Shown: positions 1,645 through 64,000 of the stretch, one piece after another
Position numbering within the stretch: the stretch's first letter is position 1
Layout: each line of letters opens with the position of its first letter
Source of the DNA: Microthyrium microscopicum
Lineage: Eukaryota
Length of the DNA: 64,000 nt
Direction: 5' to 3'
Assembly (NCBI GenBank): GCA_010405405.1
Contig: MU004231.1
Location: 62,001 to 126,000 of the forward strand
The notes under the pieces: model-generated
The model's database searches: none
Seen by the model: only the letters and a program-made list of their open reading frames with translations
What the model was told of the DNA's origin: nothing
Position numbers and translations under genes: made by a program

Positions 1645-3408
1645 ATGCGGTTCTCCATATTCATAAGATTGGCGTGCTTGCTGTGTAATTGTCATATTAC
1701 CAGTAAGTTTACTGGAAGTCACCCTTATACAATCGGGCCATTTGACGCTAACATGAAGTCTAACAACAGATGCCGCTTCCTATGAATCTCCCGCCCCTGG
1801 CGCATTGGCTGCTAGTTTTGAGCCACATCAGACAAAATCCGTCGTCAATACGGTCATCCTAGATGTTGCGCCCACGCCAATACCGCGAGAACTACAGGCA
1901 AGGAGCCCGCAGAGAGGGAAGGGTATGGCATGGGGGAAAGGACGAGGTCCGCCGTGGGGCGCAGGTCCTCCTCCCTGGGTACGAGGAGGTGAGTAATTCT
2001 TCAGAAAAGTTGTGCATTGGCTGAAGTTATATAGCAATTCCGCCTGTTGAGATACATGGTGGAGGGAACCTAGCAAGAGATCAGTTTTGCGCGCAACTTC
2101 TCGAGTCTGTTATACCGCCCATGTTCAGCATGATGGGAAATACTGTACTAGGAGGCGCGCAGGGCCCGAAACCCACCGTTACAGTCAATATGGGCGGACC
2201 TAATCGGTATGGAGAGAATCTCGATACATGTATGAATACAATGGGTCCGCCATGGGCCTGGACAGGCGGGCGGAAGCCACCTTATGGAGATGGATTACCT
2301 CCAATTGTAAGACCCTGTTGATGCCTTATTGTAGGGGATTGGTCTGACTGATCTAGGTCATTGTACAACAAGGTACCCCTTCGAACAATCCTATGGTATG
2401 CTCAGCTGCTACTTCGTCACTATCCAGATCGGTCTCGCAGTATTTCTCTTATGTTTCCTCATCCAGAAACGTAAACTCGGTACATCGGACTGGCCTGGCT
2501 GGGACAGTGGCTTCAGCGGTTGCATCCGCATTGAGCACGAGGCCCTCAGCAACCTTCTATGGAGGACCATGTGTGACTGGAGGGAGATATAGTGGAGGCT
2601 CAATACCAGGCGTTTTCCCAACGATAGGAATTGCGACGAAATCGGGTGGCAGCGCAGTATTTGGCGACGCTCCGGCATCAGGAATTACGCACGCTACTAC
2701 TTACTTTACACAGGCCCGACCAACGCAACAAGCGACGCAGACTGTGACTATAACGAGAGACAATTCTCCCCCTTCTGCGCCGTTGGATATCGAGACTACT
2801 TCTGAAGTCACTGTGTGTCGGCAATATCCGGATTTGCTTACCAATGACTGGAGCCATGTAGCGAATTTGGAACTCAAGACGAAAATCAAACCCACTTGCT
2901 GGACGGTATCATCTCTTCCATACGAGATGGGCAGTATAAATGGAAGCAACATATGGATACACGATCAACCCCATGACTGCTGGGTCCACGAGCAACTCCT
3001 AAACACCCACCAGGATGACCTTACTCAAAAACTGAAATACTGCAAAACGCCCCAACATCTAGTCGGTGGGTTACAAGAACAATATACACGACAAGACTGT
3101 TATGACGGTCCCTCTTTGGACGCTCCATCCAAAAACCTTGGAGATGGTGACTACGTCGATGTCACCTGTCAGATTTTCGGCGAAAATGTGCGAGGCAACA
3201 AGTGAGTTTCCAACAGGAAAACATTTCTTTCACTGTTAAAAGAGGCTAATATGATGAAAGTACCTGGATCAAAACCTCTCAGAACTGTTATATGCCCGGA
3301 GGAGTCTTCGATCTTGCAAAATGGCTCAGTGAGTACAAAGACTCATAAGAATATCACACCTTACTAACAAACCAACCAGCACCAATGAACCTCAAATCAT
3401 GCACATAA
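1645..3408 (+). CDS. Secreted Gly/Pro/Thr-rich protein with two C-terminal Cys-containing SH3b-like repeats (6 exons)
   Basis: ATG 1645 gives MRFSIFIRLACLLC (signal-peptide-like). Five GT..AG introns join ORF-track pieces 1805, 2121 and 2393 and two short 3' exons in frame, ending ...KTSQNCYMPGGVFDLAKWLTPMNLKSCT* (TAA 3406-3408). The repeat C..GP....V.VTCQ..GENV.GN..W.KT...CY resembles, from memory, the N-terminal SH3b-like repeats of fungal NlpC/P60 proteins. Confidence 0.75.
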
Positions 3409-3843
3409 CAACCAGCCACTGAACCATACTTAACGAAAACGATCATATCGCCCATCCTATGTAAAATTAGCACAAAGTTCCGTTTATACAATACCCCAAA
3501 TATCAAATGTCAGATACCTGACCTGAACCGAAAGCAAAGCATATGTTCATACCAAGAGTTCACATAAGATTGATGAAGCGACAAGCGTTTAGTATTGTAC
3601 CAACGTTCCAAGTGACAAGATGACAAAAGTTGTTTTGATTCAATTCAGAGCACAAGCCCAATTTTCATGCAAAACATGCTGTCACGAGCTCTATAAATGT
3701 CCCATACATGTGTTGTTACAAAATGGCGTCAAATTGGCCCTAGCTTTTCCTTTCGGAGGGACAGATAAAGGGTTCGATCTGCCCACTTGCTTTCTCAACC
3801 TATACTTCCTCCTTTTTGCTGCTGTTATGCTGTCCGATCTTTT

Positions 3844-5516
3844 CTAGATGGTTGTTGGTGTGCTGGCTGACACTACCGATGGGAGTGGTGGGAGAGCACC
3901 GCTTGCTGCGCCTGAAGCAGCAGGTGGTGGTGCTGGGCCTCCGGCTGGTGGTGCTGGAGGTGAGGCAAGTGGTGCTGGTGCTCCTGCTGGTGCAGCTGGA
4001 GAAGTGCCGTTGGTAGATGCGCCGGTGTTGCCAGTACCCTTGGCCGCCTTCTTTGCCTTCTATCGTGGAGATTAGCATGCGAAATTGGAGGTCAGTGGTG
4101 AGTTGCAATTGCTTACCTTTGCCTTCTTTGCTTTCTTCGCCTTCTTGGCGGCGTTCTTCTTGGCCTTCTTACCTCCCTTGCCCTTCTTCGCAGTAGGCGC
4201 AGTAGTAGTACCGTTTCCAGTGTTGGTGCCTGCTGTGAGAGTGGTGTTGGCAGCAGCGCCAGCGGGACCAGCGGGCCCGGCGAGAGCACCAGGACCAGCA
4301 GCCTTATTGTGAGGATCGCGAGCAACGACAGCCTTGTTTGCTGGTTTGGCTGTAGCTTTCAGTTAGCGTTTATATGACTTAAGGGTTGATTAGTTGAGAC
4401 AAATGATCCCAGTGAAGATCGCCCGTGAAGATCACCCGGAAATTTAACAGAAGGACATTGGACCCCTGTTTTGAGCCCATGAGTGTTTTCTTTTACGTCA
4501 AAGTTCTTGAATGTTTCATGAATTTCTTGTGTGTGGTTGTCTGTGTGAGAGTTCTCTTGAAATGTTTATGTTTCTTTTTCTTGGAAAAATTCTTGACTGG
4601 ATTGGTTCTTTGAAATTGGTTGTTGATTCTTTTTAAACTCTTTAAAACGGTTGCTCTTTAAAACAAATTCTTTAATAAAACTCTCCAAACCACAGATTGC
4701 TTTGGCCAAGATGTGTCAACCATGCCATCTTGTATGGCCGAATGGTTTGTTCCAGCCGAAATCAATCGAGAAAAAAGAAGGGTATCGATTTTTGTCGGTT
4801 TGGGGCTCAAAACAGGGTCTTCTTTCAAATGTCCTTCGTGCTCAAATTTCCGGCAATCTTTCAGCAGGATATCATGAAGGACGATTTAGACGCGACGGTT
4901 TCCACCTCTCGCTTTCTTTGCCTTCTTACCTTTCTTTGCGGCCTTTGCCGGAGTTGCGTTCTTCAACACACCTATGCATGATTAGTTTTCGGTGTTTCTA
5001 GAAAACTTTGGGATGTAATACCTCCGTTCACAGCCTTAGCTGGGGTATTGGTCTTTGCCTTGGCGCTAACGGCCTTATAAGCGGCAAGAGATGTAGCACC
5101 CTATCCGCGAGTTAGTATGTTGTTCTGATTTATCTAGTTCAAACACTTACAGTTGCGCTTGGGTTGATCACCATAACCATACCAACTTGGCAATGTTGAG
5201 CCTGAGCGCAGTAAACAACCTGGGGTTGAGTGCTTGTGACAGCAACATCGAATGTTGGCTTGGTACCGGCGTTGGCGGCGACATTGACGAATCCAGAGTT
5301 GAATTGTCCACCTGGCTTGCATCCTTGGCCGGGTGTACCAGCGGTGGCAGTGTGGTTTTGGTCCAAAAAGGTAAATCGGACAGTGTCACCTGGATTGGCG
5401 GTGATAGAGGTTGGTGCGAAAACGAGCTGCTTGTTGCCGCCGACATTGACGTTCTTGATTGCGGCAAAGGCAGCGCCAGCCTGGGCGACAAGAGCAACGG
5501 TCTTTGAGAAATGCAT
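3844..5516 (-). CDS. Secreted cupredoxin-domain protein with Lys/Ala/Pro-rich tail (long isoform; a short isoform ends at 4886)
   Basis: Signal peptide MHFSKTVALVAQAGAAFA. Cupredoxin motifs F.P..I.A.PGDTV.F.F...NHT and YCAQAQHCQVGMVMVINP carry the His/Cys/His/Met type-1 Cu ligand pattern. Introns 5150-5101, 5021-4972, 4929-4350 and 4116-4060 are all phase-compatible; stop TAG 3846-3844. Confidence 0.85.
4426..4863 (-). other. Long-range intronic RNA duplex (arms 4863-4803 and 4478-4426) with internal hairpins
   Basis: On the transcript GGGCUCAAAACAGGG/CCCUGUUUUGAGCCC (15 bp), AAUGUCCUUC/GAAGGACAUU (10 bp) and AAAUUUCCGG/CCGGAAAUUU (10 bp) are colinear complementary blocks, with G-U pairs in the flanking segments. 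Confidence 0.7.
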
Positions 5517-6273
5517 GTTGAGTATGTTGGTAAGGCTATCAAAGCTGTTCGGTAAGGAATGTATTGTTTGTTGGTGAAAGAAGTGAAAGTATACTCTCCA
5601 GGAGATAGATGTATAACGAGCTAGCGTTTTTGTAAAAGAGTGGAATCCAGTCCAAGATACTGAAGAGAAGATCTAAAGAGAAGCTGATGAAGGAATGTTT
5701 GGCTGCTGAAAAAGATTCATGGAAACGGAGTCACTTGGCATATATAGTAATTCCACTTGGCCGTCAAATGTCATTCTTGTGGAGATGTTTCCTAGGTAGA
5801 TGTGGAATTACTTACCAGTACCAGGGACTGAATCAAAGGCGGTAAAGCGGCGCCAGGGAGAGCGGTTGACAGGCTAAACATGGGCGGATTCAAGATGCGC
5901 ACCTGGTGGTTGAGAGACACATGACAGTTGGATGACAGGAACACTTGATGGGAAACAAACGAAAGAATGGCTGAAAATAGAATGCATGATTGGGTGAATG
6001 CTTTGAATCGATGGATATGCCAGGCTCGCCAGTTCTGCCAGGAGGTGAAACGTTTCGAGGTCTGGCAGTGGCTGTATAGAGCAGACTACACAGCATCCTT
6101 CCAAGGTTCGAGATGACCTAGCAAACGCGGAAAAATACAGACGAAGCTGTTTCTGAATACCCTACGTAAATGGTAGGCCTGGAACAATAACAGTGGTTCT
6201 GAACATTGCAACCACGAATCTGGTTTGAAGGATTTCCAAAGTGAAGTTAGAGAGCTCGGAATGATTGGACAAC

Positions 6274-62928: not shown

Positions 62929-63404
62929 TAGATCTATTCTGTAGACGGGAGTGACATGGCAGTGTTGCTGTGAACGTTGCTTGGAGCTTTGCCAGCTCTA
63001 GAAAAAATATGCAAGTTCGGATTGAATATCTTGTGGCCTTGTAGCCTTGGCGCTCTAGCTTGGATGCCTTGCAGGCTAGGAAACAAGGCCGCAACCACTT
63101 TTTATTTCAGCAAACATTAGATGAAATGCTGAAATGCGCATGAGGATTATAGATGTATGACTATTACAAGAGATGGATTGCTCAATATACCAATCAATCG
63201 CGATGCTACATGTAGATTCAACGAACATGTAGCTAAAAATATATCCAATGTGATTTACTATATACGGCAATGGTGGGAATGCAACAATAATCAGTGGTGT
63301 TGCTTTAAAGTTGCTCCGAGCAAAATCCTTTTCAAGGTGGTATTTAAGCCAATGACGAGGCAAAAGTCGTAACGCCGCTCCAATAGTTTTGGTTCAGAAA
63401 GCTA

Positions 63405-63879
63405 CAGTGCCATTTAGGTTCTCTAGTCCCCCCCTCCAAAATGATGAAATGGCGCTTCACGGCGTAATTGGATGGATCTTGGGGTCAGCCCGGGCGTTAC
63501 AGTACAAATTTGTTAGATAGCACCCGCTTGCGGCCAGGCCTCAGCCCTTTCAAACCATCCTTCCTAAATACTACATCTTAGCTCGCTTTTAAAGCTCTAC
63601 TAGCAACGTAGAATATAAATTTTGAGCCGGAATTACTACTCGCTACTAACTTGAAGATATATTAAAATACTAGAAATAATAGTATTCACTAAAGGTTTGG
63701 CTCTAGAGTAGATAACATTATAACATAGGAAGTAGATGGAGTTGGCAAGATTGATCTAAGGGGCTACGCTGACAAATTTGCATACTAACGCGCTCTTCAG
63801 ATCTTCTCGCCCTCCAATCAGGCCCTGAAGCACCATTTCATAATTTCAGGGGGGGGACTAGAGAACCTAAATGGCACTG
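63405..63879. mobile_element. 475-bp non-autonomous Tc1/mariner-type MITE with TA target duplication
   Basis: 30-bp perfect TIR CAGTGCCATTTAGGTTCTCTAGTCCCCCCC extending imperfectly to about 65 bp; TA at 63403-63404 and 63880-63881; no coding capacity. Confidence 0.92.
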
Positions 63880-64000
63880 TAAGAGCTGCCCTCCTTGGGA
63901 TAGCTTACCACTTATATAATCATTTTCTCGGAGGATAATTGGAGGTCGGAGACGAGCGGCAAGCTTGGCAAGCCACGAGGCCCACGTTGCATTGAAAGGA

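Follow-up and report, generated by a model that had tools for sequence, protein, structure and literature searches.

A cupredoxin gene of Microthyrium microscopicum combines introns of 50-57 nt with a single intron of 580 nt that holds a long inverted repeat, raising the questions of whether this intron is genuinely alternative, which proteins would result, and whether an RNA stem formed by the repeat takes part in the choice between them. The gene lies on the minus strand of the window analysed here, a stretch of 64,000 nt (assembly GCA_010405405.1, contig MU004231.1, positions 62,001 to 126,000), and all positions below are those of the window, except those given with another locus name.

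A long third intron and two RNA forms

Five exons (5516-5151, 5100-5022, 4971-4930, 4349-4117 and 4059-3844) make up one open frame of 311 amino acids, interrupted by introns 1-4 of 50, 50, 580 and 57 nt. If the donor at 4930 is left unspliced, the frame closes at a stop codon (4888-4886) to give a product of 176 amino acids. A preliminary description of this DNA had pointed out both the long intron, with proper donor, branch point and acceptor among short neighbours, and the read-through to a stop reaching 4886, and the sequence confirms both. The gene comprises the following parts.

5151-5516, minus strand: exon 1, coding; signal-peptide-like N-terminus (by eye) and cupredoxin domain with H55, C103, H108 and M113
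5101-5150, minus strand: intron 1, 50 nt; joint in run X1 contigs and splice signals
5022-5100, minus strand: exon 2; open frame and run X1 contigs
4972-5021, minus strand: intron 2, 50 nt; joint in run X1 contigs and splice signals
4930-4971, minus strand: exon 3, the part common to both forms; both downstream contigs begin at 4959, 30 nt before the donor
4350-4929, minus strand: alternative intron 3, 580 nt, which in the short form serves as coding end and 3' UTR; seen as joint 4349/4930 and as unspliced contig 4388-4959
4886-4929, minus strand: read-through coding end of the short form (...GGNRRV, then stop), from the translation; homologue P0003 ends KKANRRV
4117-4349, minus strand: exon 4, long form only, with a Gly/Ala/Thr linker and second Lys block; junction contig
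4060-4116, minus strand: intron 4, 57 nt; splice signals, and a contig loose end at 4117 that reads as the start of exon 5
3699-4059, minus strand: exon 5, carrying the Pro/Ala/Ser-rich C-terminus of the long form (stop at 3844), then covered 3' UTR; run X1 contig

The region was found in one public run, X1, which we take to be RNA and whose contigs were placed at 90% likeness; zero depth in the bins at 2500-2901 argues against DNA in this run. One contig carries a joint 4349/4930 that skips 580 nt with CT..AC ends, with 30 letters on its short side, one below the 31-letter rule for joints. The predicted junction from 4930 to 4349 is thus present, and exon 4349 is joined to exon 3 rather than belonging to a separate transcript. 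Unspliced RNA stands alongside it in the same run, in a contig that covers 4388-4959 continuously, through the loop of the inverted repeat and the whole of its 3' arm. The common starting point of the two contigs at 4959, 30 nt before the donor, probably reflects a fork at the donor in a 31-letter graph. In this one run, two RNA forms of the cupredoxin gene therefore exist, spliced and unspliced at intron 3.

Of the 13 depth bins between 3572 and 5313, ten contig pieces give an exact match to 10; 48 letters of one unrelated Lys-repeat contig explain the remaining three. With the bins so accounted for, unspliced cover is found only in intron 3, and none is needed for introns 1, 2 and 4. Contig depths were 247 upstream, 92 for the spliced form, 121 for the unspliced form and 92 downstream, a single figure per contig that does not amount to an isoform ratio. 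A joint 4146/4911 and a loose end at 4928 were rejected as parts of the cupredoxin gene: they fit another Lys-repeat transcript, represented by a deeper contig that shares short words with the gene (at 4146 and 4911-4928), and the flank of that contig was not found in genome G000.

The unspliced contig might represent plain intron retention, or unprocessed pre-mRNA running on to exon 5. Intron retention reportedly dominates fungal alternative splicing, and the run X1 contigs carry no information on RNA 3' ends or levels, while the filter applied to them can leave holes, so that the missing cover at 4350-4387, holes alone proving nothing, hints only weakly at an end of the short RNA in that area. 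However, no break interrupts the junction contig in exon 4, an indication that it is uncommon for unspliced RNA to run on into that exon; the depth bins are accounted for; and the short tail is of a conserved type. Plain retention is, on this evidence, very improbable indeed.

By its GT donor, CTRAY branch motif, YAG acceptor and exact removal (one run; 30 letters on the short side), intron 3 is of the U2 spliceosomal type. Its donor (AAG/GTAAGA), branch motif (CTAAC, 4366-4362) and acceptor (CTACAG) equal those of the short introns in quality, so weak signals do not account for its incomplete splicing. In a stwintron, removal of an inner intron rebuilds a donor; a [D1,2] stwintron was rejected because the observed joint removes exactly 580 nt, and a stwintron using the AAG at 4378 would, by eye, leave GTCATA and only 29 nt. 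Open frames inside intron 3 were likewise rejected as exons: no branch motif precedes them, and they lack a joint. The public gene model P0002 (203 amino acids) takes as acceptor an AG at 4841 that has no CTRAY motif upstream and no joint in run X1; it fits neither of the RNA forms observed and should be corrected.

Several further observations concern this stretch and its surroundings. A second CTAAT followed by AAG (4378-4393, minus strand), 28 nt before the used acceptor, could give a third, very short ending, and no joint at this AAG was present in run X1. Two consecutive open stretches of 49 and 68 codons, with one stop between them and repeated F-K/Q-E words, occupy 4359-4715 (minus strand), overlapping the AAGAA-rich loop; they may be due to chance or be a fossil coding piece. 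Run X1 carries nine extra letters in the exon 5 Lys repeat at 4045, an allele or an assembly effect. On the plus strand, a low-depth spliced transcript at 2990-3523 (GT..AG joints 3201/3261 and 3328/3380) converges on the 3' end of the long form. Upstream, RNA cover on the minus strand (5517-6117) extends to about 600 nt before the start codon and ends about 160 nt short of an AT-rich, RIP-like block.

The protein and its two endings

The exon 1 product is identical to that of P0002, which is labelled Microthyrium microscopicum. Type 1 copper sites have the ligand set His-Cys-His-Met, and this set is present as H55, C103, H108 and M113, invariant in all 53 aligned sequences. A structure model of exon 1 (pLDDT 84.7) gave pseudoazurin and plastocyanin as top Foldseek matches (E 3e-6 to 6e-6, TM about 0.58), with a Pfam Copper-bind score of 15.6 bits, under the 21.2 cut-off. 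Together with an N-terminal signal peptide recognised by eye, these features make the gene product look like a secreted type 1 copper cupredoxin, as predicted from sequence and model. A search of the literature on Microthyrium microscopicum and on the protein family found nothing about this gene.

Homologues had to show the domain motif, have a Lys-rich end and be shorter than 340 amino acids, and 34 of 208 proteins passed. Tails ending in RV occur in 6 of these 34, among them P0003, which shares 84% identity in exon 1 and ends NRRV; judged by these counterparts, the short form carries the family-typical ending. Exons 4-5 would add about 145 residues, rich in Gly, Ala, Thr and Pro, in which another Lys block and three further N-glycosylation sequons occur. 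Three of the 34 homologues (P0025, P0026 and P0029) have long tails that contain a second Lys block together with a PLPS stretch. Ten tails were compared with the long tail against a background of shuffles: z was 5.2 for P0029 (0 of 500), 2.8 for P0026 and 2.2 for P0025, and P0058, a short-type tail, likewise reached 4.3. The PLPS stretch is common to the long tail and P0025 (E 0.001), and BLASTP of exon 4 against P0029 gave no match (E 2.3). Homology of this low-complexity tail with those of relatives is therefore likely but weak. The earlier suggestion that both splice outcomes look coding is borne out to this extent, the short tail having close counterparts in relatives and the long tail weaker ones.

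Two side observations concern these tails. The long forms, at 4325-4345 (minus strand) and in P0025, P0026 and P0029, have Arg/Lys words (AR, RR, RK) near the point at which the short forms end, which presumably resemble the processing sites of secreted fungal proteins; if they were cleaved, the mature proteins would be alike and a basic peptide would be freed. In P0024 and P0036, a close homologue is fused to a PF01248 domain beyond the Lys-rich tail; the fusion was probably created in assembly, as a chimera through the Lys repeat.

A long-range stem and its possible origin

Within intron 3, the inverted repeat and its surroundings are laid out as follows.

4803-4863, minus strand: 5' arm of the stem; predicted pairing reaches 4873 (folding and arm alignment)
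4841-4842, minus strand: AG taken as acceptor by P0002, inside the 5' arm; mean unpaired probability 0.26
4479-4802, minus strand: loop, 324 nt, A-rich, with nine [C/A]AAGAA words (word count)
4426-4478, minus strand: 3' arm of the stem; predicted pairing reaches 4417 (folding and arm alignment)
4350-4425, minus strand: zone past the 3' arm, with contig end 4388, CTAAT 4393, AAG 4378, A-rich ATATAA 4375, branch motif and acceptor; putative splice-or-cleave role

The arms can indeed pair in the 15-, 10- and 10-bp blocks first described (4817-4803/4464-4478, 4837-4828/4450-4459 and 4853-4844/4436-4445, all Watson-Crick). Their score of 46 was reached by none of 2000 dinucleotide shuffles (maximum 36), the whole intron folds with z = -3.81 (0 of 100 shuffles reach it), and the stem's share of the intron fold is about 51 kcal/mol (-148.2 vs -97.2). 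In stepwise folding, arm pairing arises only while 4470-4420 is made and dominates once available, with about 56 expected pairs. Between the stop and the stem lie 22 nt, and the far end of the stem is 38 nt short of the last covered base and 62 nt short of the branch adenosine; the linkers outside it measure 109 nt for the outermost helix (56 + 53 nt) or 128 nt for the main arms. Three G-U pairs had been proposed in addition. All three (4855, 4854 and 4843) are present in the minimum-energy fold, but their number depends on the alignment, a plain DNA alignment of the arms giving one or two G-U pairs with four transversions and 5-6 gaps. Their use as a sign of strand selection has to be given up, since the antisense duplex is nearly as stable (-60.6 vs -64.4 kcal/mol), the intron as a whole has the lower folding energy on the opposite strand (-158.5 vs -148.2), and one of eight control repeats, L077, likewise has three G-U and no A-C pairs.

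Such a repeat could be incidental: the isoforms would be real, and the arms would be either worn ends of an old MITE or a local inversion that arose neutrally in the 3' UTR, without influence on which form is made. A survey of 464 kb (the window and 40 further stretches of 10 kb each; of 8643 survey windows, the 7953 with a GC of at least 0.36 were kept) returned seven other loci of similar geometry with a higher arm score, and with seven stronger repeats in about 400 kb of sampled DNA, inverted repeats of this kind are common in the genome. The two of the seven that were searched genome-wide gave 56 and 35 matches and are MITE families. The small strand asymmetry in folding, and the gaps between the arms, as in an old repeat, also fit an incidental origin. 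Against it, the same search returned one genome match each for intron 3 and for its 5' arm, absence of matches being no proof of rarity. A 15-nt arm pattern had four hits, two of them the arms and the other two not extending (a control pattern had three), and a 22-nt arm pattern with three mismatches allowed had the 3' arm as its only hit. The possibility that the arms were multicopy MITE ends was thus tested by both match and pattern searches, and they are not detectably multicopy. The TpA/ApT ratio of the intron (0.50) is like that of exon 1 (0.41) and unlike that of the eight control repeats (0.83-2.0), so intron 3 bears no RIP signature. Its arms have no TA ends, in contrast to the two control MITEs; their outer ends are not sharp, and no target-site duplication was seen at them by eye. 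A young MITE is therefore unlikely; the arms may still derive from a very old one. Moreover, none of the seven stronger repeats is flanked on one strand, within 120 nt, by donor and branch-acceptor motifs, L059 with a weak GTGTGT excepted, although the lower-scoring L083 has both. Taken together, we regard an incidental repeat as rather unlikely.

Among 30 metagenome loci, all distant (best whole-domain identity 46%), there was no match to intron 3 beyond chance (best E 0.74); three were inspected with downstream DNA (L011, L013/L028 and L014) and carry short tails, and the introns of L038 are all short. The genome itself gave eight paralogue matches, of which L010 was left out for its overlap with L003, and no comparable inverted repeat was found at the seven loci tested.

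The survey also brought other repeats to light. A TA-flanked MITE with 73-nt terminal inverted repeats lies at 63403-63881 of the window (56 genome matches), some end pairs being about 3.7 kb apart, which suggests longer parent elements. L064 (8059-8350, G000:C2) belongs to a second TA-flanked family (35 matches). Five further strong inverted repeats are L060 (1482-1725), with perfect 46-nt arms, L059 (4301-4618), L077 (1192-1606), L080 (2925-3259) and L085 (7488-7879).

A putative composite terminal exon and its known counterparts

In the preliminary description, the stem looped out an internal stop and a putative poly(A) region at about 4500-4880. Neither part agrees with the data: the unspliced contig runs on without a gap across the loop and 3' arm to 4388, and the stop at 4886 precedes the 5' arm by 22 nt and is not enclosed by the stem. 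RNA that is unspliced and carries an in-frame stop is observed, its 3' end probably lies within the intron, between the 3' arm and the acceptor, and the gene would thereby possess a putative composite terminal exon.

We lean slightly towards a model in which the stem shortens the path from donor to branch point, so that splicing can compete with intronic 3'-end formation and the output is mixed. The arms could pair only once the 3' arm is transcribed, and the stem would then reduce the distance between donor and branch point from 566 nt to about 110-130 nt. Fungal spliceosomes prefer short introns, and the shorter path would let a spliceosome used to introns of 50-57 nt commit in competition with cleavage. 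Cleavage would take place in the zone 4425-4350, the 75 nt from the 3' arm to the acceptor, into which ATATAA, CTAAT and the branch point are packed. Where intron 3 is not spliced, the RNA would end shortly past the 3' arm and encode the family-typical protein of 176 amino acids with its Lys-rich tail NRRV; where the 580-nt intron is removed, exons 4-5 would be joined to give the protein of 311 amino acids. The stem may also hide the AG at 4841. It would be a static splicing aid with mixed output and not necessarily a regulated switch. If it is functional, a fungus with introns of about 50 nt could splice across a whole 3' UTR, having gained a new last exon while retaining the old ending.

The stem might instead act mainly in the mature short mRNA, folding almost the whole 500-nt 3' UTR and bringing the stop codon near the 3' end, with consequences for stability, surveillance or translation, and with splicing as a side beneficiary. 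Both arms lie inside the unspliced contig, the paired region fills the span between the stop and the last covered base apart from the short stretches given above, and the 498-nt stretch folds with 62 long-range pairs; yet the positions of the splice sites alone yield the same geometry, and we consider this role improbable.

A regulated switch, in which a protein on the AAGAA-rich loop or the elongation rate decides whether the stem forms in time and the tail varies with condition, could build on the nine [C/A]AAGAA words in the loop (0.7 expected, 0 of 2000 shuffles, the pattern having been picked after being seen), on the late pairing in stepwise folding, and on a 9-mer that occurs twice where the 3' arm has its outer end and that, by eye, permits two registers. 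Folding revealed no competing structure of similar strength, however, and the RNA comes from one condition. A riboswitch was rejected, as intron 3 has no Rfam match, the TPP riboswitch included; the one match of the search (E 1.8, at 5587-5643) lies outside the intron and below the cut-off. Such regulation appears decidedly improbable.

A fuller scenario joins the splicing aid to a co-transcriptional timer: a selected stem could not close until about 60 nt before the branch point is transcribed, 3'-end signals would overlap branch point and acceptor, the AAGAA array would recruit a factor that tips the race, the ratio of short basic to long glycosylated cupredoxin would be tuned by condition, and the arrangement would have been gained by enclosing the ancestral ending and 3' UTR in an intron. 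We hold this combination to be unlikely; if it were true, a filamentous fungus would have an Nmnat-type switch between splicing and polyadenylation that needs no ligand. The literature covered, outside which most subscription papers fall, contained no ligand-free stem of this kind for filamentous fungi, only the TPP riboswitch. A 580-nt intron with two abundant outcomes and three clean helices would offer a compact reporter for splicing versus 3'-end formation in filamentous fungi.

The repeat resembles MITEs and introner-like elements in having terminal inverted repeats of 40-80 nt that enclose a few hundred bases. It differs from them in being single-copy, without RIP signature or TA ends, and in having its arms 57-76 nt inside the splice sites.

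Closer likenesses come from known folded introns, as far as the accessible parts of the papers cited here describe them. The motif had not been recognised as a described one, but a fold-back intron with two tails is an arrangement already described in fruit flies and yeast. In intron 4 of Drosophila Nmnat (Raker et al. 2009; PMC2724269), a stem sets distal splicing against a polyadenylated terminal exon: its 3' box lies upstream of the signal for poly(A) addition, and the stem is needed for distal splicing, giving two C-termini. Cupredoxin intron 3 shares the complementary boxes and the two C-terminal outcomes. The Nmnat stem is conserved, was proven by compensatory mutants and governs a choice between two acceptors, whereas the cupredoxin short form arises by donor read-through, and its predicted stem has longer arms, of about 55 bp.

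The zipper stems of Saccharomyces (Rangan et al. 2025; PMC12350175) join donor and branch point in long introns by a 5'-3' stem; their primary sequence is poorly conserved, and some did not promote yeast splicing. The cupredoxin stem would likewise bring donor and branch point together, and its outermost helix, 56 and 53 nt from them, agrees with one criterion of that study. Its linkers of 109-128 nt fall outside the 42-85 nt of the definition, so that it is not classed as a zipper stem, and the intron, unlike theirs, also holds a coding end and a 3' UTR.

Among filamentous fungi, AFUB_001550 of Aspergillus fumigatus (PMC12810187) has short introns followed by a long 274-nt intron with an in-frame stop, where many transcripts end, and 154 of 484 CDS-internal ends in that species lie in or beside introns. 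The cupredoxin gene has the same succession of short introns and one long intron with an in-frame stop. By contrast, the accessible part of that paper describes no stem, and the short form there loses a domain, whereas the cupredoxin short form is family-typical. The TPP riboswitch of Neurospora crassa NCU01977 (PMC3597705) offers long-range pairing in an intron of a filamentous fungus, its alpha-alpha' pairing over about 500 nt bringing a distal donor near the acceptor; the cupredoxin intron differs in having neither a TPP aptamer (Rfam) nor a series of alternative donors. Finally, long-range pairing in human PCCRs has been proposed to suppress intronic polyadenylation (PMC8052449). The cupredoxin case would also link long-range pairing, splicing and intronic 3' ends, but the PCCR model places the 3' ends inside the paired region, whereas the unspliced cupredoxin RNA passes the 3' arm. 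Set beside these systems, cupredoxin intron 3 is a genuine alternative intron, with two products that are plausible as proteins, and its long-range stem is likewise real and single-copy, with a putative role in splicing.
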